Shown: positions 46,336 to 64,000, counted from the stretch's first letter. The stretch: DNA of 64,000 bases from Patescibacteria group bacterium (GCA_023379265.1 JAMCUI010000007.1:14780-78779), one strand, 5' to 3'. The notes: generated from the letters alone by a model not told the origin. Numbers and translations are program-made.

Positions 46336-49300
46336 TTGCTTGACTTTCATCTGAAGCTGCTTTACGCTGAAATTATGGTTCATCTAGGCGAAAATCTACC
46401 AACACCGGCCGACGCAATTATCCGAGCAAAAACGACTTACGATATGGTAAGAAAACGTCTTGGTGGAACTGTTAATACAACATTAACGCCAATTGAAATA
46501 ATCCGGAATTATAACGCAAATATTACACAAGGCCAACCAACATTTAATGAAAATCATCCTGAAAATATAGAAGCTGTCCGAAATGCACAACGGTATCAGC
46601 GTGATATAAACATGATGGGTTTACAGCCCGATGATGAATCCAGCGTAGTACAGCAAAAAATTAGAGATTTGGGAACGCTGGTAGGAAGCCTGGCGACAGA
46701 ACCTGAAAACATACTTTCGCACCTCAGACAATTTCAAGAACATGGAGCAAGACTTGGGCTGACCGGATCAACAATTGAGGAAATGGCTGCAAGTGTAGAT
46801 ACGATCTTGGCATCTGATGCTCCACTTGTCGGACTAGATTTAAATCATGATTCTCTTTTGGATATTGCTACATCTGTTTATGACACCCGCCATGATGCTG
46901 AACTTTCGGGTATGGGGAATGCCTTTACCGCACCAATGGATGAAGCGCTTCATGCTGTGGACGATTTCCGGCAACATGCTGATCGGTTGGGCATTGTAAA
47001 TGCAATAGGAAGGAATCAGCGGCCTATGAATGAACTTTTGGGAGACTTGGCAGACAGGGCACAAAGAGCAGGAGCGGGGGGCGGTACAACAGTAGCTGAA
47101 CAATTTGCTGCCGTTGATAGATTTGGAACGTTTAGAACACAAGCCACAAGAAATATCCGCATGGGGAATATTGACGCTCTCACCCGACACCAGATAGAAA
47201 ACAGGTTGAGAGATTATGCAGAAAACCTGGAACTAAGTAGAGATGGCAATGTGGACGAGGTTATCGGAAGAATTGAGAATTTTCTTACTACACAGATACA
47301 AACAGCAGGGTACGACATCACACAAAACATACCAGATTTGGTACGAACCATAAGAGCAGACCAGGATATCCTTTTCCGAGACAATCAACAACAGGGGGCA
47401 AGACGTCAACAACAACAACATCGGATACAAGAAATCGTCAACCGCGCAATTGGACTACGTAATATGGTTGACGCCGCTCTAATCACTGATCGGACTAATA
47501 CTATGCCTCTTAGGGAATTGGGCAGCCATGTCATAAACGACGCACAAATTGCAGGTGGTATTAATATTCAACAAAACCAACGGCCGCGCCTGGCATATGA
47601 AATTGCCCAAGATATTAGAAACCTCAGAAATAGCGTAAGGGCTGCACATTTTGGAAACCTTGCCAATCGTAGGATGGAGGAAATGGCACGGCAACTACGA
47701 ATACAAGGTCCTGCGCTCAGAGTAAAAGACTCAGCCAACCAACCGTTAGCAGTTATCGTCAGTGCTGCTGATAAAGTAATCAAGGAGGAAATTGGGGCGG
47801 GTGTTGAAAACGCAGATGATCTTGCTAATTCATTGCGCACGATACAAACCGACGTACAAAAATTCAGAGTAGCTGCCAAAAATGCTGGAATCGATGATGC
47901 TGATAATGCCCAGACTCCTACTGAATCGATTACCATGGAATTGCAAGCACGCGCAGGAGTCGCTCAACTGGAAAATATTGACAATTTATCTCCAACTGAG
48001 ATCGCTCAAAAACTTGTCGAGTTCAATAAGAAAATAAAGACTGCAAAAGTAGAAGTTGTTGCGGGGGATTTTAGCACAACAGTTGATAACATCTATAATA
48101 CTGCGGGGTTACTCCAAATCCCGGATCATCTAGACCAAACTCCTGAGGAACTTCTCGGACAGATCACTACAATTCTTCAAAATACCAGAACAGCCGGGTT
48201 TGCCGAAGTTCAGGCCGGGCATGTTGGAGACCTTATTGATGAGATGAGACATACAACCGGAGCATTGAGACTGACACAGGATGCACCACTTACTGACATC
48301 ATCACTTCTGCCACACAATATCGCACTGATGCGCAAACAATGGGATATGACAGAAATGCAGATATTCAGACGGTTGCCGATAATGTCAGAGGATTCAGAA
48401 CTCTAATAACGAAAAATAATATTGCCGGAGCAAGTCTTACAGAACAGGTTGCTACACTTGAAACACATCGTGCCACACTTGGTCTACCAGACCATACTGC
48501 TGCCTACCAAATACTAAATACAGTGGAAACTACCAGACAGGATGCCATAAGGATTCAAACAGGTTTTGACGCATACAATCAAAACGTCGGCGAATCACTC
48601 CGAGTAGTCAATGAGTTTCGTGACCACGCGCAAGCCTCAGGAGTCGCAGACGCAAGGGGAGAACATCAGGTTGATATAACCCATCTCATGACAAATATCA
48701 ACACAGATGCCAGAGCTGCAGGAATTGACGCGACAGATACTTGGCAAAATAAATTCGACGCAATTACGGCTTTACGCCATGATGCAGAAACCATAGCCGG
48801 AATCCAAAACGTAAATAACACATCAATGGACAATATCAAAAGACAGCTTCGCGGCATTGCAGAAGCAATAGGTTTTACCTTCAACGACAGCACATCAATC
48901 AGAAATTTTCTCACAGGTATTGACCGGTTCAACAATCTGGCAGCTGGGGCAGGTTACCAAAGAGCTCCCGGCACATCTTATACAGATATCGCTTCCCAAA
49001 TAAGACAGGACGCCCAACAATATTTTAATATTAATCAAAACGACAATGGGGTTTCCCTGGAGACTAGATTGGCACGGGTGAAGACTTTGCGTGATCATGC
49101 AGAAAAAGCTAAATATACCGGGGATGTCAGGGCAGATCAATTGTCAAGCGTGGTTGCCTTTATAAACACCGAGGCACAGGCAGCTGGACTTGATAATGCG
49201 TTAACTTTGGAAGTCAAGGCGGATACTTTGGTTAAATTAAGACAAAGAGCGATAGCAAGAGGGATAACCGATGCAAATACTGCACTTATGTCCACTTTAG

Positions 49301-51210
49301 CAGTAAATATCAAAACCGCAGGTACTGCAATCGGAAAAACTGGAAGTCTTGATGAAATATTAATAGCACTTGAGGAAACAAGCAGTCAAAGCGCTAGAGC
49401 AACCAGCGCTGTAGTTCCTCCTGCCGCCGACGCTCTTAGAATACAGGCTGAAAGAGTTACTAACTTAAGGCAGTTATTATCCACAGCGCTTCCCGGCGTT
49501 GACACTACTGGTAATTTGGATCCACTAATCGTTACGCTTCGAAATGATGCTACAGCAGCCCAAATAACCATAAATAACGCCGAGCTTCCTGAAACCATTG
49601 CTCAAAGACTGATAGATTTCAGAAGAAATGCTGAAGATGCCAGAGTTTTTGGGGCCATGACCCAAAGAGATATAAATGTCGTCGTAAGTCAAATCAGACA
49701 AGATGCCACAGTCCTTAATGTCGCAAACGCAAATGCTGACACACCGGCTAATCTTACTGCAGTGATCCACGGAATAATTCAAAGAGCCAGAGCTGCCGGC
49801 TTTCCGGATATTACACCGACAGCTGATTCGGCCAGAAACTTCAGAAATACTTTGACAGCTGCTGGCAACATACTTCACGCTGCTGCCAATGCGACACCGG
49901 ATGAGATCATAAATCTGGCCCGTACATACAGAGATAACGCCTTGGCAATCGGTATTGCCACGGCAAACACTGACATGCTTGAAGGTGATACCGGAGTAGT
50001 CAGAAGAGTTGACAATTTCGTGACTCTTGCTAATAATTACGGCTTTGCCGGTGCCAGATATGCCGATATAGAACCACAGATAAATACCATCAATCGTGCA
50101 TCACTAGGCCTCACCGCTGCAGCCACACGGGAAACAGTACTCAATGCAGTTGTTGAGAGAAAAACCCTAACAGGAAATATCGGAATGGCCAATGCCAGGG
50201 GAGCTGATATTGCCAACGTCATAAATGCTATTGACCAGTTTTGGACCAACGTGCAACACACCAACATTCCCGAGTTTACTCAAGCACACGCAGCAAGAAA
50301 TCTTGAACAACTACGACCCCTGCTTCGCACTCAAGCGGATATTGTAAACGCCTCTCCTACCGCAACACCCAGAGAAATGATTGTGACTATCGGAAATTTT
50401 AGAACAGACGGCGGGTTGATAGCGGTACCCAACGCCAATAACTGCCCTCTTGCCACAATAAGAACTGCTATAGATTCCTTTATAGGTGAAGCCGAAAAAG
50501 TTGGAGCGCCTAGAATAAATCCTGCCACTGGAGCAATAAATGATGTACAAACAATTGTGAATGACGTGAGGACAATTGCTCAAAATCTGGGAGTAGCAAA
50601 TGCCATGGCAGATTCAATACCAACAATTCTTCCACAAATTTTATTCTTTCAGGAAAGAGTCCGTCAAGAAACATCTCTTATCCATGATGCCGGACCCGGT
50701 AGGGCACGAATTGATATTGCCAGAGTAGATTGGTTAAACACTCAAACCAATGACGCAGCGGCTCAAATCATGCTACTACATAATATAGCTATATTGACTG
50801 GAACAGATATTCGTCGCAACGGCCACAATGCAAGACCTGACAATGGAGGAATCATCGCGGTTCAGCGAAACAGAATCGTTGCTACAAGAGCAGGAGCCAA
50901 CCCAGCGGTTACTGCTGATTTAGATATAGAAGATCAAAATATGAGAGAGGTGCAAGCCTATTTGGCTGGTTTCAATCGAATGAATATATCAAATCTTCTT
51001 GGGCTTATTACAACACGCCAGATTATGACTGACCCCACCGTACCAGCAGGTCTTCGTCAGGCATTTAAGACTATACCAAGCGAGGTATGGACACGACTTC
51101 CTCAGGCCGGACCTCTTCGTGGAATGAACCCAAATCGTTTATACACAATCAAAGTTGCCAGAATACTTGCTGGATTGCCGGTAGAACAGATAAATGGAGC
51201 AATTATTTAG
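46336..51210 (+). CDS. giant (about 1610-1624 aa) Ala/Arg/Gln/Thr/Asn-rich protein built from ~35 degenerate ~45-aa repeats; function unknown
   Basis: The long ORF starts at TTG 46336 or ATG 46374. It has no TM and no signal peptide. A recurring motif (F/L/I)R-x-(D/H/N)A-x-x-x-G-(I/L/F/Y)-x-x-A appears about every 40-50 residues. Examples are FRQHADRLGI, FRDHAQASGVADA, LRQRAIARGITDA and YRDNALAIGIATA. G+C is markedly higher than the flanks. Confidence 0.55.
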   Translation: MLDFHLKLLYAEIMVHLGENLPTPADAIIRAKTTYDMVRKRLGGTVNTTLTPIEIIRNYNANITQGQPTFNENHPENIEAVRNAQRYQRDINMMGLQPDDESSVVQQKIRDLGTLVGSLATEPENILSHLRQFQEHGARLGLTGSTIEEMAASVDTILASDAPLVGLDLNHDSLLDIATSVYDTRHDAELSGMGNAFTAPMDEALHAVDDFRQHADRLGIVNAIGRNQRPMNELLGDLADRAQRAGAGGGTTVAEQFAAVDRFGTFRTQATRNIRMGNIDALTRHQIENRLRDYAENLELSRDGNVDEVIGRIENFLTTQIQTAGYDITQNIPDLVRTIRADQDILFRDNQQQGARRQQQQHRIQEIVNRAIGLRNMVDAALITDRTNTMPLRELGSHVINDAQIAGGINIQQNQRPRLAYEIAQDIRNLRNSVRAAHFGNLANRRMEEMARQLRIQGPALRVKDSANQPLAVIVSAADKVIKEEIGAGVENADDLANSLRTIQTDVQKFRVAAKNAGIDDADNAQTPTESITMELQARAGVAQLENIDNLSPTEIAQKLVEFNKKIKTAKVEVVAGDFSTTVDNIYNTAGLLQIPDHLDQTPEELLGQITTILQNTRTAGFAEVQAGHVGDLIDEMRHTTGALRLTQDAPLTDIITSATQYRTDAQTMGYDRNADIQTVADNVRGFRTLITKNNIAGASLTEQVATLETHRATLGLPDHTAAYQILNTVETTRQDAIRIQTGFDAYNQNVGESLRVVNEFRDHAQASGVADARGEHQVDITHLMTNINTDARAAGIDATDTWQNKFDAITALRHDAETIAGIQNVNNTSMDNIKRQLRGIAEAIGFTFNDSTSIRNFLTGIDRFNNLAAGAGYQRAPGTSYTDIASQIRQDAQQYFNINQNDNGVSLETRLARVKTLRDHAEKAKYTGDVRADQLSSVVAFINTEAQAAGLDNALTLEVKADTLVKLRQRAIARGITDANTALMSTLAVNIKTAGTAIGKTGSLDEILIALEETSSQSARATSAVVPPAADALRIQAERVTNLRQLLSTALPGVDTTGNLDPLIVTLRNDATAAQITINNAELPETIAQRLIDFRRNAEDARVFGAMTQRDINVVVSQIRQDATVLNVANANADTPANLTAVIHGIIQRARAAGFPDITPTADSARNFRNTLTAAGNILHAAANATPDEIINLARTYRDNALAIGIATANTDMLEGDTGVVRRVDNFVTLANNYGFAGARYADIEPQINTINRASLGLTAAATRETVLNAVVERKTLTGNIGMANARGADIANVINAIDQFWTNVQHTNIPEFTQAHAARNLEQLRPLLRTQADIVNASPTATPREMIVTIGNFRTDGGLIAVPNANNCPLATIRTAIDSFIGEAEKVGAPRINPATGAINDVQTIVNDVRTIAQNLGVANAMADSIPTILPQILFFQERVRQETSLIHDAGPGRARIDIARVDWLNTQTNDAAAQIMLLHNIAILTGTDIRRNGHNARPDNGGIIAVQRNRIVATRAGANPAVTADLDIEDQNMREVQAYLAGFNRMNISNLLGLITTRQIMTDPTVPAGLRQAFKTIPSEVWTRLPQAGPLRGMNPNRLYTIKVARILAGLPVEQINGAII

Positions 51211-51607: not shown

Positions 51608-53761
51608 TTAGACAGGATAATTTTCAATTCTATTCTCTACCACTTTCATCATATCAAATATTGCCAATTGTAAATCTACACGAGATAAGCTTCCCCCTTC
51701 ATAAAGAGTTCTTAAGGCTGAAAGCGCTTGTTCCAACCTGTCGCCAGGATTTAAGGTCAACTCAAACCGCTCAACTAGAATATCTGCCACTGCTTCCGGA
51801 GGTAAAAGCTCAGAAGCCCATCTGGCATGGTCAACCGCCTGAACGCCACCCGGAACTCTTCCAAAAACAAGTCTCTGTATCATGCTATAACCGTGAAGAA
51901 GCGTCACGTTGGTTCTTGTAGCATCACCCGGTGGCGCTACAATCGTCTCTTGAGATATATCAGTCAAACTTTGCATGGAAAACTCCTGTTGATTATCAGG
52001 ATCATTAAGTTCTCCATGAATCTGTCCGTATCTAAGAAGTGCAGCCTTTGCAGTGTCGATTATGTGTATAACATCTTCTGATGCCGATATAGGCTTTTCC
52101 GCATCTTTAACCACTTCACTTAGTCTCAAAATTTCAGTTTCTAAATTGGTTATCTCACCCGTCAACTGAGTGACCTCCTGATCTTTTACCTGCCGTTCTC
52201 GCTCTTTTGTCGGAATACTGGCTAAATCTCTTTTCACTTCAGTTAATCTCGTTTGTTTTGCAGCCAATCCTCTTTCAGTATTTCGCCTATCAACTTCAGC
52301 CAGCCTTGAATTAAATTCCGCTTCATCTTCCTGCCACTCGGTTTTATATTGCCGAGCCAGTCCTATATTATTATGAACCATTGCATCATTATAAAGTCTT
52401 CTATTTTCACGACGAGCCTCCTCTTTTTCCCTTTCGATAGTACTTCTTGCCTCGGTCATTTCTCTTATTTCCCCCTCCAAATTTCCCTGTTCCTGCTGTA
52501 AACTTGCCTGGTTGTTTCTTAAACCCTGCAACTCTCCCTCAAGTCTTGTAACTGCTTCCCTTGCAGTTTGCAATTGAGATCTTTTTTCTGTTCTTCTGGC
52601 CTTTGCATCCTCTAACTCCTCACCCCGCATCTGTTTTTGAGCTTCTGTCATTCTCGGTTTTGCTGCTGCAGCCCTTTTAGAATCAAGTTGCTCGATTACA
52701 GGTCTAAATACCTTTCCAGGCTCAGTATTAAGTAATTCCAACGCCCTCTCGGTAAAATGCACTACAGTCTCTCTCTGAGCCTTATCCCATATTTCCACCC
52801 TCCGCTGTTGAGATAAAGGACCAACAAACATACCTCCCTCTCTTGCTCTTCTCATCCTATAACCATTCCACCGACTTGCAACGTTATATCCCAAAGCATC
52901 TGGATTTACCTGTGCATTTCCCGCTGCAGTTAAGGCAAAGGAATCCCAACTGGTAAAATTACCCATCATATTTAGCTTTACCCCCAATAGATGATAAAGA
53001 TCGGCGTGCGCCCGACCTGTCTCCATTAATTCAGTCACCACCCTATCATCTGTTGCCAAAGAATTATCTCTCATATATTCCAAATAGGCTCTCTCCTCAG
53101 CTGGTAAAAAATTCCAGCTGATTGCTCCCGCACCTCTGTTTAATACGAGCCTGCCTTGAGCATCTATTAATCCAAAAGCATCAACAAGCTGATTTATCGC
53201 TTGCCTCACACCCTCACTTAATCTTTGTATTTGACCGGCATACGCATCCAAAACCACTTCTCTATCGGCAGGCCGGGGGACATCCCCTCTTGCACCTGTC
53301 ATCGCTTCCTGTCTAACCATAAGTTTGCGGAACAATTCAGTTTCAGACATGACGTGAATAGCGATTATTCCTGCCTCTGATTTTACTAGTTCGCTAAAAT
53401 CACCGTTCGCCCTTTTATAGAGTTCAAGAAATGTCTTCTGATCTGCTAACAAAACTCCTCCCGCATCCTGATATTGTTCAAGTTGAGCTCCAATATTCTC
53501 TCCCATCTTTTGGTATTCCTTCATTACTCTTGGATCAGCAATTATTTCATGGAGAGCTGGCCTACCAAATTCTCTTCCTTTCCATTTTGTTACATTTGGT
53601 TGAGATGGAGTACGTTCGTGAGGCGCATTCCTTTGCTGAGGCTCAGGAGTATCCACATGAGGGCGAGGCGTGTTTGCCGCCGGAGCCATAGCAGCAGGTT
53701 CTATAGTTGTATGAGCCGGTGGCATCGCTTGCGGTAATGTATCTGGAGTCGCTTGTGCCAT
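51608..53761 (-). CDS. coiled-coil protein with Pro/Ala-rich N-terminus (717 aa)
   Basis: The N-terminal ~60 aa are P/A/T-rich. The central ~250 aa have strong heptad, coiled-coil character (RLEGELQGLRNNQASLQQEQGNLEGEIREMTEARSTIEREKEEARREN...). There is no TM. G+C is elevated. Confidence 0.45.
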   Translation of the reverse strand: MAQATPDTLPQAMPPAHTTIEPAAMAPAANTPRPHVDTPEPQQRNAPHERTPSQPNVTKWKGREFGRPALHEIIADPRVMKEYQKMGENIGAQLEQYQDAGGVLLADQKTFLELYKRANGDFSELVKSEAGIIAIHVMSETELFRKLMVRQEAMTGARGDVPRPADREVVLDAYAGQIQRLSEGVRQAINQLVDAFGLIDAQGRLVLNRGAGAISWNFLPAEERAYLEYMRDNSLATDDRVVTELMETGRAHADLYHLLGVKLNMMGNFTSWDSFALTAAGNAQVNPDALGYNVASRWNGYRMRRAREGGMFVGPLSQQRRVEIWDKAQRETVVHFTERALELLNTEPGKVFRPVIEQLDSKRAAAAKPRMTEAQKQMRGEELEDAKARRTEKRSQLQTAREAVTRLEGELQGLRNNQASLQQEQGNLEGEIREMTEARSTIEREKEEARRENRRLYNDAMVHNNIGLARQYKTEWQEDEAEFNSRLAEVDRRNTERGLAAKQTRLTEVKRDLASIPTKERERQVKDQEVTQLTGEITNLETEILRLSEVVKDAEKPISASEDVIHIIDTAKAALLRYGQIHGELNDPDNQQEFSMQSLTDISQETIVAPPGDATRTNVTLLHGYSMIQRLVFGRVPGGVQAVDHARWASELLPPEAVADILVERFELTLNPGDRLEQALSALRTLYEGGSLSRVDLQLAIFDMMKVVENRIENYPV

Positions 53762-53834: not shown

Positions 53835-55781
53835 GTGTCAGCCGCTATGTATGATAGAAGCATGGTACTAGCTGAAGCACCGGTCACACCACCAGTTGTA
53901 GAAGCACCACACGCTCCCGCGCCTTATGTGGAACCTAAACTCCCCGGTGAAGCACCTGAACAAGCGGCTCCCGGAGAGGATGCACGACTCCATAAAGATT
54001 TCAAACAACTTATTCAGATTGACGGGACAGCCAACGGTAACAGGGCATTGGTTGATAGGGGATACGCCAAAAAAGAGACAGTTACCGCGGAATTTAAGGC
54101 AGCGGGGAAAAATGTAGGGGATGCTGCAGTACAGCAGGAAATTGATACTGAAGTGCAAAGAAGAGAAACGGAACAGCAGGATGCTAGAAAACCCAAAAAA
54201 GAAGACGCGTCAGAGGAAATGATTGCGGCTGAGGCAAAAAAGATGGCGGCAGAGGACGGACCATGGAAAGGAAAAGACGCGAATGACCCTGCATTGAGGG
54301 AAGAAGCTGCCCTTAGAGCGGCACAAAAAAGGATTGACGGATTGACAGGCGCTTATGACATTCTTTATACCGCACAGGACGCTGTAGCCTCCTACAATGC
54401 TGCTGTAGAAAGCGCCATCCAAGGGGAGGGCAACCGGCTTATCCAAGAGGAAATTGCAAAAAGGAATGCCCAGGCTCATCTTAAAACTCCTCCCGATCCT
54501 GATATTACTGATTTACCTGATGGGGAAAAAGAACAAATTAGAGCTGGAATTAATAGAAGTGAAGTCGGGAAAAGAGTCAAAAGAGAAGATTATTATGATC
54601 CGGACAATCGCAAATATCACAAAGTTGGCGCAGACGGAAAACCGACTGCAGACGTAGTCTCCTACGACGACGCGTACGAAGCCATGTATGAAGAACTCAT
54701 CAGAGTCTCTGGCTTACCACCTGCTGCTGACGGTACACCCAATCCTGATGCTGAAAGAGCCCAACAACTGTTAAAGTCACTTCACTACAATAGGGATGAA
54801 AATGCCTTCCAGGTATATACTCCGGAGCAAAAAATGCTCAAAGAGCGTGAAGCAGGACAGGAACTCCTTATCCAGACAGCCGAAAATGTCTTTAACTCCA
54901 TTTGCGACCAGGGAGTACCGCCAGCAAAAGAAGCGTCTTCGCTTGTTTCCTCACTCGGACTCTTTCTTGACCGCTTAAAAACAACCAACCCCCCGCTTAA
55001 TCCTTTACAACGCAACATGGTTCTGGCAGCTATAAATGAGAGACTGATGGGTCTTGCCAATGCCCAAACAGCAGTCATTGTCTCCGCAGAAGACGCCCGA
55101 ATGCTTGATATGCTGAAGAAAAAACCAGGCGCTATAAGACAGCTAAACGCTTTCAAAAACAACCAGGCGCTTAAAGGCATGATGAGTGACATACACAGTT
55201 CTATAAAACAAGGTTATGTGGATATCATAATGGGCACCACCCAGCACGACGTAAACATGGAACATTTCTTCCAGTCAGTTAGCCTTGCTGCGCTTTGCCG
55301 GGAACAGGGATTGACTAAACCGTCGGAAGTAAAACGGATACTGGTAAAATTCAAGATAGCCCTGACAGCTGGAGATCAACAATTGATAACTTTCCTTGCA
55401 GGGGAAGACACAGGGGGAATACGCACAAAACTTCCGGGGGGTAAAAAAGAAAATACCAACCTTGACCAAATGCTCGATCTTATAGGCATGAACGCTAAAG
55501 ATATAGGCGATTTCCCCAAATATATAGCTGCCAACGCTAAACGGATTGTGGAAAACGCGGCCATGCCTGGAGAAACCAGCCAGGCAAACTGGGCAGAAGT
55601 TGCCAAAAACAGGGAAGCCGCGCTTCGCGGTCATGCAGTGATAGCAGAAAAGTTCGTCAAAGATCCAAAGTTTAAGCTTGATGCAGGAAAAATTCTTATG
55701 CTTATTATGGGCGGTGGAACAGTCATGGGATTAGTACAACCAATACTCGAAACAAACCCCGAAGAGAAACAACAAACATGA
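53835..55781 (+). CDS. Pro/Ala-rich protein with C-terminal tail-anchor TM (648 aa)
   Basis: The N-terminus is PVTPPVVEAPHAPAPYVEPKLPGEAPEQAAPGEDA. There is a single C-terminal hydrophobic segment ILMLIMGGGTVMGLVQPIL followed by an acidic tail. It is divergent from the 717-aa gene across a 73-bp spacer. Confidence 0.45.
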   Translation: MSAAMYDRSMVLAEAPVTPPVVEAPHAPAPYVEPKLPGEAPEQAAPGEDARLHKDFKQLIQIDGTANGNRALVDRGYAKKETVTAEFKAAGKNVGDAAVQQEIDTEVQRRETEQQDARKPKKEDASEEMIAAEAKKMAAEDGPWKGKDANDPALREEAALRAAQKRIDGLTGAYDILYTAQDAVASYNAAVESAIQGEGNRLIQEEIAKRNAQAHLKTPPDPDITDLPDGEKEQIRAGINRSEVGKRVKREDYYDPDNRKYHKVGADGKPTADVVSYDDAYEAMYEELIRVSGLPPAADGTPNPDAERAQQLLKSLHYNRDENAFQVYTPEQKMLKEREAGQELLIQTAENVFNSICDQGVPPAKEASSLVSSLGLFLDRLKTTNPPLNPLQRNMVLAAINERLMGLANAQTAVIVSAEDARMLDMLKKKPGAIRQLNAFKNNQALKGMMSDIHSSIKQGYVDIIMGTTQHDVNMEHFFQSVSLAALCREQGLTKPSEVKRILVKFKIALTAGDQQLITFLAGEDTGGIRTKLPGGKKENTNLDQMLDLIGMNAKDIGDFPKYIAANAKRIVENAAMPGETSQANWAEVAKNREAALRGHAVIAEKFVKDPKFKLDAGKILMLIMGGGTVMGLVQPILETNPEEKQQT

Positions 55782-55796
55782 AGTCTGAACTAAATT

Positions 55797-56507
55797 ATGA
55801 TCATCCAGATTTTGCTATTCCTCATATTACTTATCCTTCTCTATTTTATTAGCAAAAAAATCTCTTCTGCAATTTATACTATATTTCTTCTAATATCGAA
55901 AAACAAACATTTTACAAACATTCTATTGGCGCTTATATTCTTACCCGGAACCATTCTTCATGAGATGTCCCATTTCCTTGTCGCAACGGTACTTAGAGTA
56001 CCCACAGGAAATCTGTCGGTTCTTCCAGAGCAGGAAAAAGAGGGGGAAATAAAGGCTGGGAAATTGGAACTTGGCAAAGCTGATCCTTTCCGATATTCCT
56101 TAATAGGCCTTGCGCCAATTTTGACCGGCCTAACTGTTATCTTTATTTTAGGCAAAAACTATGGTTTAGAGCTTAATTTTTTGCTTAACTTCAAAATAAC
56201 AGTCATACAACTTGCAGTATTTTTCGTTTCTATAATTATCTCAGTCACTATGTTTTCCAGCAGAAAAGACGCAGAAAGCTTGATCATTTCAGGTCCGATT
56301 ATTTTACTAATATCCATATCTTTATACCTGATAGGAGTAAGGGTCATCCTCAATCAAAATCTGGCAGAAGCAATTACGGCCTTTTTTACAGACATCAATA
56401 AGTATCTATTGTTCATTCTTATACTAGACTGGCTTCTACTGATAATATTGCAACTAATGGTAAATCTTTTGAGTAAAATATTGGGAAGAAAATTTATTGA
56501 AAGATAG
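55797..56507 (+). CDS. polytopic membrane protein with intramembrane HExxH (HEMSH) motif, putative zinc metalloprotease
   Basis: 236 aa with about 6 TM helices. HEMSHFLVA lies at the end of TM2. Composition is host-like and AT-rich, starting 16 bp after the GC-rich block. Confidence 0.4.
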   Translation: MIIQILLFLILLILLYFISKKISSAIYTIFLLISKNKHFTNILLALIFLPGTILHEMSHFLVATVLRVPTGNLSVLPEQEKEGEIKAGKLELGKADPFRYSLIGLAPILTGLTVIFILGKNYGLELNFLLNFKITVIQLAVFFVSIIISVTMFSSRKDAESLIISGPIILLISISLYLIGVRVILNQNLAEAITAFFTDINKYLLFILILDWLLLIILQLMVNLLSKILGRKFIER

Positions 56508-56511
56508 AAAT

Positions 56512-59500
56512 TTAAGTTGTGGAGGCTGATGTTTTAGAATCCGCAGCACCTTCTTTTACCCCCGTATCTTCCGTAGGTAAAACTGGCCCTGTATCTGCGG
56601 CGGGAGACTGACTTTGATCTAAAGAGGTATTTTGTTGAAAATAATCACTCAAGGGATTCTGACTTTGAGCTTCTTGTACCGGTGAATTATTCTCCTGTGG
56701 AGACACGCTAACGGTTTTATCCTTACCCTCCTCACTTGATACCTCCTGCATGCTGAAATCCTTTACTTGGGTTTCCGGATTTCCTGTATTTGGTTTATCT
56801 TTTTGACCTGCCGCTTCAACTGACGTCCCAGATGGTTTCTGTTCCATTTCCTTTACTAATTCACTGGCGCATTTGGGACAGGAAAGGGGAGAAGCATCAT
56901 CTGTTTTCCTCTGCCAGATATTGGAACAGTTAAGACACTGGTATGATTTGGAGTCTTCTTGAGGTTTGTTTCCCCCAGGCACTTCTTCTACCTGTGGATT
57001 TTTTGTCTTATCATCTACCACAGCTGGCTTTTTAAGCTCCATCTTCTTTACGTTAAAAGCTAGTTGCTGCCCGTCATAATCCACCATTACCGTATCACCC
57101 GCAGCTAATTCTCTTTTTATAAGAAGAGAGGAAATTTCATTCTCTATAAGACGTTGCATTGTCCTGCGCAAAGGCCTGGCGCCAAATACGGGATCATAAC
57201 CCACCTCGGCTAGATACGTCTTTGCATCATGACTGATATCTATAGCAATATCCTGTTCCTCAAGCAGTTTAGAAAGAGCTTTCACCTGAAGTCCTACTAT
57301 TTCCACCATATGTTTTCTGGTCAACGGTCTAAAAACTACCACCTCGTCAAAACGATTAAGAAGTTCCGGACGGAAAAACTTGCGCAACTCTTCCATCAGG
57401 CGATCCGCCAATCGAGCAAACATCTCATCTTCTCCACTATCGGATTTTTCCTCGTCTTTATTCTCCAAACCCAAAGGAATAATATCTTCAGGCTTTTTAG
57501 TCTGTGCCTCTACTGTACTAAACAATTTCACCATCTTTCCAGAAATCCATTCGGTTGAATCCGTATTTGCTCTCTGGAAATAACGTCCGACAGCAACGAT
57601 TAATTCCTCACCAGTAGGCTTAAAAACGTGTTGATCCCATTTTTCAATAGGAAACTCAATCTTTTCCTCGTCTTTAGGATTAATCTCAACTCCTGTTTTA
57701 TCCTCTGACTGTTGTGCATTATCAATTCTTTTCTCACTTGTATTTACCTCAACCTGATTGGTGCCGCCATTATCTGTTTTATTGTTTACGGTTTTTAATT
57801 CGTCTGTCTTTATATCTCCACCTGAAATATCCGAACCGTCTGTTTTTTCTTTCCCTTCCGGTGTTTTTCCTATAGAAACAACGTCTGCGCCCTTCAACGT
57901 ACATCCCGTAAAATACTCAGCTAGCGTACCCGTAGTCCAATCTGTTGTCTGCAAATTCTCCCTTAGCCAAAACCTGTCTCCGAAAGAAACCACTTCAGTA
58001 TTGGTAGGGGATACAGCATGTGTATCAATCCTCGCAGTAGGCAACTGTTCTTGAGGCCGGTCAGGAAGAGCATTCACCACTACACCTCCTTTTACATAAT
58101 CCAAAAGAGATTTTTGTGTCCATTCTTTGGTCGTTGTTGAGGTACGCTGCCACAACCTATCGTCAAAAGTTATAATTTCCGAGCCGTCAGGAGCGATAAG
58201 ATGAGTATCTATACCGTCCTGAGGGAAATCTTTTTCTCCCTCTGTTACCGTGGAACCGGCAAAATAGTCTAAGAGTGAAGAAACTGTCCAGAACTTATCG
58301 CTTCCTTCCTTCTCCCACAGTTTTCCCTTAAAACTCACAAGTTCCCGTCCAGTTGGCGAAATAGTATAAGTACTAAAAATTTCCTTTTCTTTAGTTTCAT
58401 GACTTTCTTCATTATTTTTTGACTTATCACTCCAACCCAACATTTCATCCTGGATGATACCGCTACCTAGATTGGAAGTACAAATAACAATGGTATTCTT
58501 GAAAGAAATGGTATGTCCTTTATTATCAGTCAACCTACCATCATCTAGAAGCTGTATAAGAATATTAAAAACATCTGGATGGGCTTTTTCTATTTCATCA
58601 AATAAAACTACTGAATATGGTCTTCTTCTCACCGCTTCAGTTAATTGCCCTCCCTCTTCATAACCAACATATCCAGGAGGCGCACCAATTAATTTTGCGA
58701 CCTCGTGCTTTTCCATATACTCGGTCATGTCAAGCCGGACGATCATCTCCTCGCTTCCAAAAAGTATCTCAGCTAAAGCTTTCGCCAACTCTGTTTTCCC
58801 TACTCCGGTTGGTCCCATAAAGATAAAACTACCAATCGGCCTCTTGTTTGATTTAAGTCCTGCCCGGCCGCGTCTGACTGCTTCGGCTACCGCCAATACC
58901 GCATCTTCCTGATCTATAAGCCTCTTATGGATAATATCCTCCAGACTCATCAACTTTGTCGATTCGCTTTCAGTCAACCTGCTTATTGGAATATTTGTCC
59001 AGCGGGAAACAATATCGGCAATTATATCCGGCCCGACAATATTGGTCGTAGTCGATTTCTTTACCTGATATTGCTCTTTAAGTTCTGTTTGGGCCTGCTC
59101 CAATTCCTGAATGTCTTTTTTTATAGTCTGGAGGTGAACTTCATCTCCTAATTTTTCCGCTTCTTTTGCTTCACTATCCAACTTTTTCAATTTATCTTCG
59201 CCTTTTTTTATTTCCTCCGGTAAGGAAATTGCGGGCAATCTTACAGAAGCCGCAGCTTCATCAATTAGATCAACTGCTTTATCAGGCAAAAACCTGTCAC
59301 CAATATAACGCTGTGATAGTTTTACAGCTGCATCCAAAGCCTCGTCTGATATTTTTACACGGTGAAAAGCTTCGTATTTATCACGAAGAGCAGAAAGCAT
59401 TTCAACGGCCACATCAGCTGTAGGCTCCAAAACATATACTGGCTGAAATCTTCTTTCAAGTGCTGGATCCTTCTCCACATATTTTCTGTATTCAGTCACT

Positions 59501-60843
59501 GTTGTCGTCCCTATCACCTGCAATTCACCACGGGCAAGGGATGGTTTAAGAATATTTGACGCGTCCATGGTTCCTTCACCACCAGAACCCGCTCCCACCA
59601 TATTATGCAACTCATCAATAAAGAGAATAATTGCTCCACTTGCGGCCTTGACTTCTTTAATAAGGTTTTTCAACCTCTCTTCAAACTCCCCCCTATGCTT
59701 TGCTCCGGCGATAAGAGACATCAAGTCAAGCAATAACACTCTTTTATGAAGAAGGGTTTCCGGAACATCTCCATGAGCAATGCGAAGAGCCAAACCCTCT
59801 ACAATTGCAGTCTTACCCACGCCCGCATCTCCGATTAACACAGGATTATTTTTAGTTCTTCGTGAGAGTATGTGAATGATACGTTCAATCTCAGTACTTC
59901 GGCCAACCACCGGATCAAGCTGTCCCTGGGCTGCTTTAGCGGTTAAGTCTTCAGTGTATTCCTCAAGGGCAGAACTGGTCTTTTTCTCCTCTTCTTTCTC
60001 TAATTCTTTCTTTCCTGTTATCTTTTTATTCAACACCTCAGGCTTCAAATTGTATTTAACTAAAGTTCTTGCAGCTAGGCCTTCCCCTTCATGCGAAAGA
60101 GCCAATAATATATGCTCTGGAGAAACAAACTCGTACCCTAAAGATCTTGCAGCAGACAACGACAACTCAAGCACCCGCTTCACTCGGGGGGAAAACTGCG
60201 GTTGCCCGGAAAAATTGCCTTGTTTGAAACTTTTCTCCAATTCCGTTTGTATCTCTGATGGAGTAGCCTTACATTCGGAAATAATCTGGTAAATACTGCT
60301 ATCTCGAAGAAGCCCCCAAAGCACATGTTCTGTATCTATGTACTGGATTTTCAACTCTTTTGCTTTTCCCACAGCACTCATTAGAGCAGTATTCGCTCTT
60401 TGGGTAAGTCGAGAAAGAACGTCCATTCCAGCTCTCTTTTTCATATCTATATTCGTCTGACCATCACTTGAAGTGTCTTTTTTTTGTGGGGTATTTTTAT
60501 CTTTTTGCTGTTGTTCTGTCTTTCCTTTTGATTGGTCTGGTTTTTGAGAAACACTATTCTGCTGCTGTCCGACAACAGGCGGCTTGCCTATTCCAGAAAA
60601 AGCTTTACCACCAGGAGGATTACCAATTCCCGAATAACTTGTGCCTGATGGGGAATTACCTATCCCTGAATAAGAAGTGTTTGTATCTTGCACGGTATCC
60701 GAAGCCGCTTGGGTTGAGTTTTTTGTAATGGTAACTACCCGTTGGTCTACATCTTGACCACCCGTAGCATCATTTTGCTGACTCTTGCCACCTGAAGCGT
60801 CTTTTTTCAAGTATCTGCTGAAATTAAAAAGTCCTGCGGGCAT
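56512..60843 (-). CDS. ClpB/ClpC-like two-ring AAA+ chaperone with GS-rich N-terminal leader, large D2 insertion of four novel repeats, and C-terminal zinc ribbon
   Basis: 1443 aa. Clp-N repeats. D1 Walker [16 protein letters not shown] short M-domain coiled coil. D2 Walker [15 protein letters not shown] and TSNLGS. The '[15 protein letters not shown]' sensor motif (standard spacing from TSNLGS ~45 aa) is then delayed by about 340 aa, a stretch carrying four copies of H-x-x-x-P-x-G-x-E-(I/V)-x-x-F-...-W-...-W-T-...-L-x-x-Y-F. There is a CxxC...CxxC zinc ribbon near the C-terminus. The true start may be the internal Met near 60444. Confidence 0.75.
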
Positions 60844-61140
60844 AAATTATTTCGGAATGCAATTATAATTTTCAGTCATATGCTCCATAAATTGCCTACC
60901 ATTTACCATAGATTTCCTAGAGCAAAAATTCTAGAACACAGTTCTAGTTAAACATGGCTGATAAAATCTGTCAATACTAAATAAAATGGGTAAAAAAAAC
61001 TTTTCACGGAAAATTAATCTATTTAGGTCATAATATGACCTGGAAAGCCTTACTTGCAAGATAATTTTTCACATTTTACGCTAGAAACAGTTATTGTTTT
61101 GTAGTCCGTATAAGAATTGTACACTAACTGACAACGACTT

Positions 61141-62634
61141 ATGGAACAACATCCAGTCCCAAGAAATATTAGCGGTTTCCAGTTCCACCTTATCGGAGAT
61201 ATGACGCTGCGCCAATTTGGTTATTTAGCTGTAGGAATTGGAGGAGCTTATTTCATTTTTAAGCTTGCGCCGTTCCCGTCTATAATCAGTTTTCCGCTTG
61301 CGGGAATAGTAGGATTGGCAGGTTTTGCTTTTGCCTTTTTACCGATTCAGGAAAGACCTTTGGATAAATGGTTAGTAGCGTTTATAAAAAGCGTCACTTC
61401 TCCCACGCAATATTTATGGATAAAAAACAACCCTCCACCTGATGTACTAACAAGACCAATTGTAATTGGACAACGGGTGATATCACAATCAACACCCCAT
61501 ATAGTTGCGCATAGAGAAGCGCAACAAAAATTAGCTTCATATCTAGCATCGCTTCCTCAATCACCCCATGAAACCTTAAATCTAAGGGAGAAAAAATATA
61601 TCAACTCCACGCTGTCACTTTTTCAAACATCGGGTGTATATATAGGAAACAACCCGACAACATATGTCGCCTCAAAACCGTCTTACGCACAACATGTCGA
61701 GCCCTTAAGATATACCCCTCTTTCCAAACAATCCACACCCATTAACGCTTCTTTTACCAGCCATGTAGTAAAATCGCCACAAACCGATGCAGCGACTCAA
61801 CCTAAATCTGATAAAGTTGCTGCGGGTTTTAAGCAAATAACTATAAGCCAACCGTCAAACATAAAGTCAAATACACAAATAACCTCTACACCTACTATTC
61901 ACGACGCGCCAACACAGCAAGCAACTGAAAAAAATGCTACGCAAAAAAATGTCCAGCAGCAGACTAAAAAACCTGCTATTTTGCCTTCAAACCTAAAACC
62001 AATAACACAATCAATAAACCCACCCACTTCGCAAAAATCAATCGCCCAAGCTGATAAGGTTAAAGATCAAAATATTCCAGAAACTCAAAACGAAACAAAT
62101 AGCCTCCAAAAACAACTAACAGACTTGGCCGCGGAAAAAAAGAGGCTTGAAGACGAATTGAACAAACTTAAAAATGAAAGAGTGAATTTGGAAAAACCAG
62201 AGATTGTAAAACCTGTTGCCATGGAGGAAAAACCCTCAAAAGAACCAACGATAAAAACTATACCAGCAAAATCTGTTGCTTTAGAAATGGGCATTACAAA
62301 TATAAACCAAAACCCCAATATTATTGCGGGTGTTTTTAAGGATCCTCAACATAAAATTTTACCAAACATTATTCTCACAATAAAAGATAAAAACAATAAC
62401 CCCTTAAGAGCAATGAAAACTAACAAACTTGGTCAATTTGCTACTGCCACACCTTTACCAAATGGGGTATATCTACTAGAAGCCGAAGATCCGCTGAAAA
62501 GGTATGTCTTTGATATTGCCGAAATCACGCTTGCCGGTAAAGTATTTTCTCCAGTAGAAATAATAGCCAAAGGTGAAAAAGAACTTATGAGGGAAAAACT
62601 TAACAAAGCGGTTTTTGGCAATGCTACAATATAG
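61141..62634 (+). CDS. membrane protein with N-terminal double-TM domain and Thr/Pro/Gln-rich extracellular region plus coiled coil; possible T4SS-associated (VirB3-like N-terminus)
   Basis: 497 aa. Two N-terminal TMs (FGYLAVGIGGAYFIFKL / SFPLAGIVGLAGFAFAFLPI) followed by ERPLDKWL, a low-complexity T/P/Q/K-rich region and the coiled coil LQKQLTDLAAEKKRLEDELNKLKNE. It sits directly upstream of a VirB4-like gene. Confidence 0.35.
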   Translation: MEQHPVPRNISGFQFHLIGDMTLRQFGYLAVGIGGAYFIFKLAPFPSIISFPLAGIVGLAGFAFAFLPIQERPLDKWLVAFIKSVTSPTQYLWIKNNPPPDVLTRPIVIGQRVISQSTPHIVAHREAQQKLASYLASLPQSPHETLNLREKKYINSTLSLFQTSGVYIGNNPTTYVASKPSYAQHVEPLRYTPLSKQSTPINASFTSHVVKSPQTDAATQPKSDKVAAGFKQITISQPSNIKSNTQITSTPTIHDAPTQQATEKNATQKNVQQQTKKPAILPSNLKPITQSINPPTSQKSIAQADKVKDQNIPETQNETNSLQKQLTDLAAEKKRLEDELNKLKNERVNLEKPEIVKPVAMEEKPSKEPTIKTIPAKSVALEMGITNINQNPNIIAGVFKDPQHKILPNIILTIKDKNNNPLRAMKTNKLGQFATATPLPNGVYLLEAEDPLKRYVFDIAEITLAGKVFSPVEIIAKGEKELMREKLNKAVFGNATI

Positions 62635-62668
62635 TAGTAAGTGAATTTAATAAGGCTTAATTTATTAT

Positions 62669-63349
62669 ATGTCACAACCGACATCCGCCCCCATAAGGGC
62701 AACAACTCAAGAATTTTTAGATATTGAAGATATTAAGGAGGATATTATTATTCTTCGGGATGGTTCAGCCGCCCTGGTTATAGAAACAACTGCGGTAAAT
62801 TTTGGCCTTTTATCTGAAGAGGAACAAGACGCTCTAATTTATGCTTACGCTTCACTAATTAACTCCCTTTCATTTTCTCTCCAAGTAGCCATCTTATCCA
62901 AACGGATGGACATTTCCTCATATATCGAAACTATCACCCAGGAAGAAGAAAAACAGAATAATCCTGTTGTGAGAAGCCGTTTACACACCTATAAGGAATT
63001 TATTATGTCTATTGTAAAAGAAAATCGGGTTTTGGAAAAGAAGTTTTATCTAGCAATTCCTTTCTCAGCGTTAGAATTGGGGGTAAAAGGAGCTGTTGGT
63101 GGAAATAAAAAAAGATTGCCATTTTCCATAGATTATATAGTTTCAAGAGCTAAAACATCGCTTTTACCCAAACGAGACCATCTTTTAAGACAGTTAGGAA
63201 GAATCGGATTAAAAGGCAGACAACTACCAACGCAGGAATTGGTAGAAATTTTTTATAACATTTACAATCCCACATTGACCGGTGAAAAGCTCGGTGAAAT
63301 CGCGGGATACACCAAACCTTTAGTCGAAGGGTTAGGAAAGAACCTATGA
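62669..63349 (+). CDS. VirB4/TraC-family conjugative ATPase, N-terminal segment encoded as a separate ORF
   Basis: 226 aa. QEFLDIEDIKEDIIILRDGSAALVIETTAVNFGLLSEEEQDALIYAYASLINSLSFSLQVAILSKRMDISSYIE follows the N-terminal pattern of Gram-positive-type VirB4 proteins (QEFLPI..I.DGII..KDG....IEV.PINF.L.SE.E). Its stop overlaps the next ATG (ATGA). Confidence 0.45.
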   Translation: MSQPTSAPIRATTQEFLDIEDIKEDIIILRDGSAALVIETTAVNFGLLSEEEQDALIYAYASLINSLSFSLQVAILSKRMDISSYIETITQEEEKQNNPVVRSRLHTYKEFIMSIVKENRVLEKKFYLAIPFSALELGVKGAVGGNKKRLPFSIDYIVSRAKTSLLPKRDHLLRQLGRIGLKGRQLPTQELVEIFYNIYNPTLTGEKLGEIAGYTKPLVEGLGKNL

Positions 63350-64000
63350 CATTCTCGTTATTTGCTAAAAAAAATAATGTGGCTAATCAAAATCAAATCC
63401 CAATTCCTCAACAGACTACACAAACAACTGGATTTGCTAAAACTGCAGTAGCTACCCAAAATATAAAAAACATAAGCGCAGAAAGCAAAGTCGCCGCCTC
63501 CGCTTATATTCCATCAACAAAACTTGCAACACAAACTCAAAAATTAGCCCAAGGCATGGTAACCGTGAAAGACATCATTGCTCCTTCGCTTGTTGAAGTT
63601 GATTTCGACCATGTACGAGTAAATAACAGTTACTACAGAACTCTTTTTGTAGCAGGTTATCCGAGATTTGTATCAGCAAACTGGCTGCACCCACTTCTCT
63701 CTTTTGACCATTCTCTTTTTATATCCATGTATATTTACCCCACTGAGTCAAAAGTGATTTTGGAAGACCTCAAAAGAAAAATTGCGGAAATGGAAGCGAC
63801 TATTCAAGCTGACATGAAAAGAGGAAAAGTTGTAGATCCGTCAGTCCAAGTGGCTCTTGATGACGCACTCGCTCTCCAAGCACAATTGGCAAAAGGAGCG
63901 GAAAGATTTTTCCAATTTAGTCTGTACATTACCATTCCCTCTGAATCTGTTGAGGAATTAAACCGGATATCAAAAGAGGTAGAATCAACCATTGGTTCAC
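63346..64000 (+). CDS. VirB4/TraC-family conjugative ATPase, continuation (3'-partial at window end)
   Basis: Open to the window end. DIIAPSLVEVDFDHVRVNNSYYRTLFVAGYPRFVSANWLHPLLSFDHSLFISMYIYP matches the VirB4 segment IAP..IEF..DY.KIGDKY.RTLFI..YP......GWL..L....D.SIHI.P. Confidence 0.5.
   Translation, partial: MTFSLFAKKNNVANQNQIPIPQQTTQTTGFAKTAVATQNIKNISAESKVAASAYIPSTKLATQTQKLAQGMVTVKDIIAPSLVEVDFDHVRVNNSYYRTLFVAGYPRFVSANWLHPLLSFDHSLFISMYIYPTESKVILEDLKRKIAEMEATIQADMKRGKVVDPSVQVALDDALALQAQLAKGAERFFQFSLYITIPSESVEELNRISKEVESTIGS

Follow-up and report, generated by a model that had tools for sequence, protein, structure and literature searches.

A predicted type IV secretion gene cluster beside the replication origin of a Candidatus Gottesmanbacteria-like bacterium encodes VirB4 as two polypeptides

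The stretch of DNA analysed here, hereafter called the window, comprises 64,000 nucleotides (nt) of a Patescibacteria group bacterium (GCA_023379265.1, JAMCUI010000007.1:14780-78779). All positions refer to the whole window, and the sequence beyond its end is that of the parent contig (L001). The last three open reading frames (ORFs) of the window encode a long PrgI/VirB3-family membrane protein, a TrsD-like protein and the beginning of a VirB4 ATPase, which are followed on the parent contig by the gene of a protein of 500 amino acids (aa) with a C-terminal membrane anchor. These four genes are very likely, with a probability of about 85%, the core of a monoderm, MPF_FATA-related type IV secretion system (T4SS) of the Patescibacteria type in a Candidatus Gottesmanbacteria-like genome, with VirB4 made in two pieces. 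VirB4 is genuinely encoded as two polypeptides in this lineage. The first of two alternatives offered by a first-pass annotation of the window is thereby supported: the split is kept in 34 of 35 loci from the candidate phyla radiation (CPR), it recurs in four assemblies, and the two proteins occupy complementary coordinates on one-piece VirB4 proteins.

The three ORFs, all on the plus strand, were called at the positions given by the first-pass annotation: 61141-62634 (497 aa), 62669-63349 (226 aa) and a third one that starts with the ATG at 63346 and runs past the window end (63346-64000, 218 codons). Direct reading of the sequence shows that the start codon of the third ORF and the stop codon (TGA) of the second share the ATGA at 63346-63349, the overlap that had been described, and the VirB4-like peptide cited at that stage, RTLFVAGYPRFVSANWLHPLLSFDHSLFISMYIYP, was found inside the third ORF. 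The PrgI gene is separated from the other two by a gap of 34 nt. An AGGA at 63334-63337, in the 3' end of the TrsD-like gene and 8 nt before the virB4 ATG, matches the Shine-Dalgarno consensus and is a putative ribosome-binding site of virB4. Extension of the contig, which had been suggested as a check, provided the complete VirB4 ATPase (L001:10678-12636, 652 aa) and the order of the genes, i.e. the 497-aa PrgI protein, the 226-aa protein, the 652-aa ATPase and the 500-aa protein. An identical 226-aa protein is encoded in four independent assemblies (GCA_023487465.1 and three Logan SRA assemblies), which are alike in gene content, gene order and the ATGA junction. Downstream of the cluster, on the opposite strand, lie dnaN, which overlaps the end of the last cluster gene by about 40 nt, and dnaA, and then rpmH, rnpA, yidD and yidC. 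The window end thus covers the 5' two-thirds of a predicted four-gene chromosomal operon beside the origin region. It had been taken for the edge of a larger T4SS locus. This was not the case: a single further gene follows virB4, and the VirB6- and VirB8-like genes that were to be looked for downstream could not be recognised before dnaN and dnaA.

The 226-aa ORF matches the N-terminal ends of the VirB4 models of NCBIfam: the CD1110 model (NF045971) at profile positions 5-118 of 752 and VirB4_plasma at positions 103-280 of 894 (E = 1e-8). Its earlier assignment to the extreme N-terminal part of VirB4 was therefore correct. Homology to the N-terminal portion of VirB4 was found with hhalign, with BLASTP against a fused protein and with Foldseek. 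The AlphaFold model (pLDDT 82) gave TrwK/VirB4 chains of the R388 T4SS as all of its ten best matches in the PDB (probability 0.99-1.00). A sequence search of the PDB yielded nothing significant, and direct BLASTP comparison with the VirB4 of C. botulinum was not significant either (E = 0.47), this relationship being detected only by the family profile. On the grounds of remote homology and gene position the protein is classified as TrsD-like, below the NCBI threshold for membership. As is characteristic of TrsD, its gene stands separately and immediately 5' of an N-terminally short VirB4/TrsE in the window, on the parent contig and in 34 CPR loci. The database contains 1648 homologs; each of the 120 listed stands alone, with a length of 219-240 aa and 71-100% identity. 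The organisms named among these 120 are Candidatus Gottesmanbacteria, in accordance with the earlier description of the source as a CPR-like bacterium. Many TrsD-like homologs (P0146, P0167, P0180, P0225, P0236 and P0247) are long (300-715 aa) and consist of the TrsD domain and a very long low-complexity tail rich in P, Q, T, S and N, at the end of which a motif is conserved (LPPLPEI, LPPIAEIE/T or LPPISEIT). This motif could be a docking peptide. The copy in the window has neither the long tail nor a C-terminal LPP-type motif.

The third ORF takes up the VirB4 profile where the second leaves it. The fragment inside the window matches NF045971 at positions 118-336 (E = 5.6e-18, 64.6 bits), and the complete ORF matches it at positions 118-734 with 416 bits against a cut-off of 325 (E = 2.9e-124). 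This is in agreement with the first-pass annotation, which had read the ORF as the next VirB4 segment and had labelled the protein as VirB4 of the Gram-positive type. The complete N-terminal domain of the model (positions 1-117) is not contained in the 652-aa polypeptide. Further matches of the ATPase are Pfam P-loop_TraG, AAA_10 and DUF87 and, in the PDB, the VirB4 C-terminal domain 4ag5 (E = 4.8e-48); the search with VirB4 models that had been proposed thus returned VirB4 profiles for both ORFs, with AAA_10 in the full ATPase. A weak precomputed match to PF26593 ('TraC-like') was not reproduced in our own Pfam scan. The Walker A motif (GKSGGGKS, residue 301) and the Walker B motif (VLVVDE, residue 507) are both located past the window end. 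The ATPase begins with a low-complexity stretch rich in Q, T, N and A (residues ~1-75, 63346-63570) that is without counterpart in fused VirB4 proteins, and BLASTP aligns the protein to fused or full-length VirB4 only from residues 60-78 onwards. The nearest relatives are VirB4 proteins of Gottesmanbacteria, WWE3 and Saccharibacteria (36-83% identity); the identity to plasmid VirB4 is at most 39%.

The two proteins cover adjacent, non-overlapping parts of three full-length or fused VirB4 proteins, just as they share out the NF045971 profile. On the 797-aa VirB4 of C. botulinum pCDC3875 the TrsD profile aligns with residues 23-199 (hhalign probability 90.6%) and the 652-aa ATPase with residues 201-788. 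A fused ORF of 973 aa from a Ktedonobacteraceae bacterium has its TrsD-like part at residues 32-237 (hhalign profile 36-241, probability 98.9%) and is matched by the ATPase at residues 345-923. The fused CPR protein P0155 (787 aa) corresponds to the TrsD-like protein at residues 6-199 (50% identity) and to the ATPase at residues 213-772 (67% identity). The family profile used in hhalign was built without P0155; when this protein was included, its ATPase part dominated the alignment. The P0155 gene is real and recurs in independent samples, on at least three contigs. Its locus is likewise origin-proximal, with a 273-aa PrgI (L045:5183-6004), the fused VirB4 (L045:6001-8364) and then, at L045:8370-12037, an 890-aa Peptidase_M23 protein and a 332-aa protein, followed by dnaN and dnaA. 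Split and fused forms of VirB4 hence occupy equivalent loci in CPR genomes. A corresponding difference in length is seen on plasmids, where VirB4/TrsE encoded after a TrsD-like gene measures 621-661 aa as against 797 aa for a plasmid VirB4 without such a gene. Judged by these alignments, the N-terminal domain of VirB4 is divided between the two proteins. Its first half is the 226-aa protein; its second half and the RecA-like ATPase domain make up the 652-aa protein, which lacks exactly the first. The complementary coordinates, together with TrwK/VirB4 as the ten best structural matches, identify the 226-aa protein as the missing piece of VirB4.

A genome scan at species level yielded 36 loci, 35 from CPR bacteria (Gottesmanbacteria, WWE3, Peregrinibacteria, Saccharibacteria and unclassified Patescibacteria) and the one from Ktedonobacteraceae. 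In 35 of the 36, virB4 directly follows the TrsD-like sequence on the same strand. Each has an ORF of its own in 34 of the 35 CPR loci; in Ktedonobacteraceae they form a single fused ORF. The 35th CPR locus has TrsD alone: in this Peregrinibacteria locus (L015:93-689) virB4 is absent from the 5-kb contig, which agrees with an exception published for Gracilibacteria in the part of the survey cited below (PMC12102498). The 34 split loci and the parent contig of the window provided 35 non-redundant junctions, which comprise 20 ATGA overlaps, 3 TAATG overlaps, one longer overlap and 11 gaps of 1-38 nt, with the relative frames 0, 1 and 2 all represented. In most loci, including most of those from Saccharibacteria, the 3' end of the upstream gene contains AGGAG or AGGAGG. 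Gene order is kept across Gottesmanbacteria, and the identity across loci of the Gottesmanbacteria type is 64-78% for TrsD and 77-83% for VirB4. Since they lie side by side and in most cases overlap or almost do so, translational coupling of the two genes is very probable. Five loci of the scan come from TPA records of metagenome-assembled genomes with the title 'uncultured Gammaproteobacteria bacterium' (L005, L008, L010, L012 and L013). They carry PrgI-TrsD-VirB4-dnaN-dnaA loci of the Gottesmanbacteria type, with TrsD-like proteins 64-100% identical to that of the window, and these labels are probably wrong.

The window has two ORFs in different frames that share 4 nt and follow one another on VirB4 profiles, and looks as it would if a sequencing or assembly error, or a real frameshift mutation, had broken one virB4 gene, and fused versions of VirB4 do exist. 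This had been the second alternative of the first-pass annotation, which had also considered a pseudogene. However, a single indel cannot explain gaps of 1-38 nt and the presence of all three relative frames. The 226-aa protein and its junction are, moreover, identical in the four assemblies, the 120 listed homologs all stand alone, the split extends over Gottesmanbacteria, WWE3, Saccharibacteria and other CPR bacteria, each gene has its own ATG, often after AGGAG or AGGAGG, and both proteins are strongly conserved. An error or a broken gene was consequently rejected as extremely improbable. Alternatively, ribosomes might undergo a programmed -1 frameshift shortly before the TrsD-like gene ends and so make a fused VirB4, besides or in place of the two proteins. 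The geometry would allow this: relative to that gene virB4 is in the -1 frame, which stays open for 48 nt 5' of the virB4 ATG. Yet a slippery heptamer of the form XXXYYYZ is absent from 63290-63349, and the required geometry is not conserved: relatives have gaps that contain stop codons, TAATG overlaps, or the same frame divided by a stop. The product would also not resemble the known fused proteins, as these have neither the ~75-residue low-complexity N-terminus of the ATPase nor the tail of TrsD. This possibility was rejected too and is regarded as very improbable.

Less remote, though still improbable, is that the 226-aa protein represents a paralogue, an additional copy of the N-terminal VirB4 region that has a function of its own, rather than a product of fission. 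In the part of the survey cited here TrsD is described as no more than a remote homologue of VirB4's N-terminal portion, and its occurrence without an adjacent virB4 is reported for Gracilibacteria (PMC12102498), to which the Peregrinibacteria locus can be added. But the adjacent ATPase lacks precisely the TrsD segment, and the coordinates of the two proteins abut without overlap on all three VirB4 proteins compared. An equivalent CPR locus contains one protein that is 50% and 67% identical to the two halves, and plasmid VirB4/TrsE proteins encoded after a TrsD-like gene are short, unlike a plasmid VirB4 that has no such gene before it. A duplicate was rejected on the complementarity of the coordinates. 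The cluster as a whole could finally be the remnant of an integrated conjugative element or a plasmid fragment, as the closest relatives outside CPR are VirB4 proteins of conjugative plasmids of Bacillota, and the window contains a gene for a tyrosine recombinase (3486-4355, plus strand) that adjoins the gene of an ATPase resembling type IV coupling proteins (T4CPs; 4757-7102, minus strand). This pair is, however, situated about 55 kb away, and all Gottesmanbacteria loci examined have the cluster between a Clp ATPase gene and dnaN-dnaA. The constancy of this position and the protein identities of 64-83% indicate vertical inheritance under purifying selection. No relaxase family was found among the scanned ORFs of the 64-kb window or the called genes up to 10 kb downstream, and the survey, in the part cited, comes to the same conclusion (PMC12102498). 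A mobile origin of the cluster is accordingly considered hardly credible.

The protein encoded at 61141-62634 is a member of the PrgI/VirB3 family in a long form. It matches Pfam PrgI (PF12666) with residues 5-91, corresponding to profile positions 1-89 of 91 (36.8 bits against a gathering threshold of 27, E = 5.7e-9), and its homologs are named 'PrgI family protein' in the sources. With two transmembrane helices and a gene adjacent to the virB4 pair it has the membrane hairpin and the gene position expected of PrgI/VirB3. The first-pass annotation had described a VirB3/PrgI-like membrane protein with two N-terminal transmembrane segments and a long extension made up of a T/P/Q-rich region with a coiled coil, modelled here as a long helix, and the Pfam match, hydropathy and the AlphaFold model agree with it on each of these points. 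The transmembrane hairpin is formed by residues 23-65 (61207-61335; helices 23-42 and 47-65 with pLDDT >90, hydropathy peak at 39-66), and conserved helices continue in the model as far as about residue 160. They are followed by a linker that is predicted to be disordered (residues ~165-314, 61633-62082, pLDDT ~40 throughout) and is little conserved in the alignment of homologs; between residues ~151 and ~300, T, P, Q, S and N together contribute 24-30 residues per 50. Residues 317-350 (62089-62190) are modelled as a long helix, probably a coiled coil, with several weak matches to coiled-coil families at residues 306-360 in the Pfam scan and with L336, L340 and L343 nearly invariant. The protein ends in a highly conserved beta-sandwich (residues ~390-480, 62308-62580, pLDDT ~90) that is predicted to have a transthyretin-like/CarboxypepD_reg/CnaB fold. 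In the PDB, Foldseek matched it to a CnaB2 domain, to the transthyretin-like domain in carboxypeptidases N, D and M and to chains from three surface proteins of Gram-positive bacteria, SdrD (A2-A3-B1-B2 construct), UafA and BcpA pilin, at E ~1e-4 over about 90 columns with a root-mean-square deviation of ~2.8 Å. PF13620 matches the protein of the window weakly and is a precomputed annotation in some homologs.

The extension thus amounts to about 330 residues past the last conserved helix and about 430 past the hairpin. VirB3 has been described as small, about 10-15 kDa, with short cytoplasmic extensions only (PMC12857230), a size from which a protein of 497 aa departs. Under the canonical topology of VirB3 the whole extension would be cytoplasmic, an odd place for a transthyretin/CnaB-like domain. 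Long PrgI homologs of 376-570 aa are found throughout Gottesmanbacteria. With WWE3 included, the conserved long form measures 376-611 aa, and in both groups its gene lies directly 5' of the TrsD-like gene; the orthologs of Saccharibacteria are short (140-180 aa) and have two transmembrane helices. Microgenomates and WWE3 carry a long PrgI with an unexpected domain of the surface-protein type.

The fourth gene (L001:12658-14160) lies just past the window end. The N-terminus of its 500-aa product is acidic, a helical region is amphipathic and rich in K, and a single transmembrane helix lies at the C-terminus; the protein belongs to no Pfam or NCBIfam family. The homolog search returned only a near-copy with 91% identity. 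Positional orthologs, all from Gottesmanbacteria, are about 25% identical, which makes this a fast-evolving protein, and a profile built from them had no match in other CPR or plasmid loci. Among the small ORFs of the window no arrays of VirB2-like pilins were found. The T4CP-like ATPase (780 aa), about 55 kb from virB4, resembles VirD4, TraD and TrwB. It matches Pfam TrwB_AAD_bind and DUF87 and, in the PDB, TrwB (E = 8e-6), and stays far below the cut-offs of NCBIfam (SXT_TraD, 58.8 bits against 366, E = 3e-16; CD1115, 31.6 bits against 250, E = 8e-8). It may be a T4CP encoded far from virB4 or a part of an integrated element. The cluster consequently differs from a conjugation system, in which a relaxase and a T4CP would be associated with virB4 and VirB6-, VirB8- and VirB1-like subunits would be present; none of these was found in association with it.

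Several observations weigh against the assignment of the cluster to a Patescibacteria-type T4SS with a two-piece VirB4. The match of the 226-aa protein to the TrsD/TraD model (NF041427; residues 12-103) reaches only 26.8 bits where the cut-off is 200 (E = 3.8e-6), and the structural match of its model to TrwK is modest (TM-score ~0.42, E ~1e-3), the aligned TrwK residues not being reported by Foldseek. The Shine-Dalgarno-like motif of the window, AGGA, is weak. A scan of 60700-64000 for promoters and terminators was at chance level (12 found, 8.8 ± 3.1 expected), which leaves gene spacing as the sole basis on which an operon is predicted. At the level of sequence comparison, moreover, no gene for VirB6, VirB8, VirB1 or a pilin was recognised in the cluster or the window.

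If the assignment to a Patescibacteria-type T4SS is correct, the TrsD-like and the 652-aa polypeptides would reassemble into a VirB4-like unit, and their synthesis would be kept in balance by the 4-nt overlap. By analogy with R388, the ATPase hexamer would be docked onto the membrane hairpin of PrgI through TrsD, which might also mediate VirB4 dimerisation. The absence of a relaxase and the vertical inheritance beside the origin argue against conjugation. Most likely the machine would serve the host-dependent lifestyle, through export to the host cell or uptake from it, as genetic work has shown in the case of a Saccharibacterium. A doubtful but not negligible variant is that the inner-membrane platform of Microgenomatia has been rebuilt from lineage-specific parts, i.e. 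the two-piece VirB4, the long PrgI arm and the 500-aa protein, with VirB6 and VirB8 unrecognisable. In that case VirB4 would be retained as two polypeptides because this lets TrsD serve as an adaptor that can be exchanged. The PrgI arm of about 330 residues would cross the envelope by a non-canonical topology and replace the VirB8/VirB6 stalk, or it might form a cytoplasmic substrate-receptor ring instead of a coupling protein; the fast-evolving, tail-anchored 500-aa protein would add another lineage-specific subunit, or would be a substrate. The T4SS is among the few machines kept by the genome-reduced, host-dependent Patescibacteria and is essential for growth on the host in one tested species, and the way it is built bears on how these bacteria exploit their hosts. 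Because TrsD is the exact part that is absent from the adjacent short VirB4, a testable role can be proposed for it, namely that of a module for binding of PrgI/VirB3 and for dimerisation of VirB4.

The divergent neighbour of the PrgI gene (56512-60843, minus strand) encodes a 1443-aa double-AAA+ ATPase of the Clp/ClpC type with large insertions, and adjoins the PrgI gene in all Gottesmanbacteria loci. The insertions contain four copies of a motif of about 35 residues (…SPTGxELVSF….W……W….L.DYF), and the C-terminus has a CxxC…CxxC ribbon. The rest of the window is ordinary chromosome, with genes for ribonucleotide reductase and NrdR, purine and thiamine genes, two class A penicillin-binding proteins and ribosomal protein L25. 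Four large ORFs are without Pfam match: 46336-51210 (plus strand, 1624 aa), 51608-53761 (minus strand, 717 aa), 53835-55781 (plus strand, 648 aa) and 55797-56507 (plus strand, 236 aa). The product of the last is hydrophobic and contains an HEMSH (HExxH) motif, and the 644/648-aa and 236-aa genes were called on the parent contig as well. A perfect tandem repeat at 1746-2080 (39-bp unit, 8.6 copies, 100% identity) is open in three reading frames and is reported to adjoin the minus-strand ORF 2087-3133, immediately upstream of its 5' end.

The closest known counterpart of the cluster is the chromosomal T4SS surveyed in Patescibacteria by Quiñonero-Coronel et al. (2025; PMC12102498), which is cited here from part of its text. 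There TrsD is the most abundant T4SS component, is usually encoded beside virB4, and is termed a remote homologue of the N-terminal portion of VirB4 to which no function is assigned. PrgI/VirB3 homologues are common and relaxases absent, VirB6 is scarce in Microgenomatia, T4CP genes are usually far from virB4, and virB4 lies near dnaA, dnaN, rnpA and rpmH in Microgenomatia and Paceibacteria; in the VirB4 tree the Patescibacteria proteins form a monophyletic clade. The cluster described here shares with these systems the components PrgI/VirB3, TrsD and VirB4 and their order, the chromosomal location near dnaA, dnaN, rnpA and rpmH, the absence of a relaxase nearby, an unrecognisable VirB6 and a distant T4CP candidate. 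In Ca. Southlakia epibionticum ML1, homologues of TrsD, PrgI, VirB6 and VirB4 are essential for epibiotic growth (Wang et al., 2023, cited in PMC12102498). The Southlakia locus differs in having an array of VirB2-like pilins and a VirB1-like hydrolase, neither of which is present in this window. The review literature speculates that the T4SS of Patescibacteria serves signal exchange or the uptake of molecules from the host.

Among plasmid systems the TrsC-TrsD-TrsE arrangement of the pGO1/pSK41 type (MPF_FATA, pGO1 subclass) is similar in its small membrane protein, its separate TrsD-like protein and its short VirB4 of 621-661 aa. The closest plasmid VirB4, from Pontibacillus (39% identity, 621 aa), is preceded by an overlapping 274-aa TrsD-like protein that is 28% identical to the 226-aa protein over 207 aligned positions (E = 6e-27). 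B. cereus pH308197_73 has an annotated TrsD (345 aa) and TrsE (627 aa), and a plasmid of the actinobacterium Miltoncostaea encodes a PrgI of 122 aa, a TrsD-like protein of 337 aa and a VirB4 of 661 aa. Annotated TrsD of Bacillus is nevertheless only 23-27% identical to the protein of the window, over part of its length (E ~4e-4). The pGO1-type systems are plasmid-borne conjugation machines (PMC4027160), the B. cereus example being typed as conjugative with a MOBQ relaxase, whereas the present locus is chromosomal and origin-adjacent, with no relaxase found. TrsD is not mentioned in the main text of Guglielmini et al. (2014; PMC4027160). The VirB4 of C. botulinum pCDC3875, also a member of NF045971, resembles the ATPase (31% identity over residues 201-788) and has PrgI encoded upstream. 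In such full-length monoderm VirB4 proteins the first ~200 residues belong to the same polypeptide, whereas here they form a separate protein. The diderm MPF_T system of R388, with its inner-membrane complex of TrwM/VirB3 and TrwK/VirB4 (PDB 7O41, 7O42, 7O43, 8RTB and 8RTD), has the two-helix membrane hairpin in common, and TrwK was the top match of the TrsD model. In this system VirB3 wraps the N-terminal domain of VirB4 (residues 15-400), and the interface at which inner and outer VirB4 subunits dimerise consists solely of N-terminal domains, which are also located at the membrane (PMC9259494; PMC12857230). Its VirB4 is a single chain of 823 aa with about 11-15% identity to the TrsD model, its VirB3 is small, and it has outer-membrane components, of which there are none here.

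The split architecture is accordingly not unusual: it is that of TrsD and TrsE/VirB4 of the pGO1-type monoderm plasmids and the commonest arrangement in Patescibacteria. As PrgI, TrsD, VirB4 and the proximity to dnaA have already been described for Patescibacteria in the part of the survey cited (PMC12102498), the window offers nothing new in kind. Every main element has been published, and the cluster is one more instance, a Gottesmanbacteria example beside the replication origin. The same part of the survey contains no mention of a long PrgI with linker, coiled coil and transthyretin/CnaB-like domain, or of a 500-aa protein after virB4. The lineage-specific long PrgI that ends in such a domain and the variation at the gene junction are modest additions of the present analysis to what is known of these systems, and equally incremental are the explicit complementarity of the two VirB4 pieces and the finding that equivalent loci can hold either the split or the fused form.

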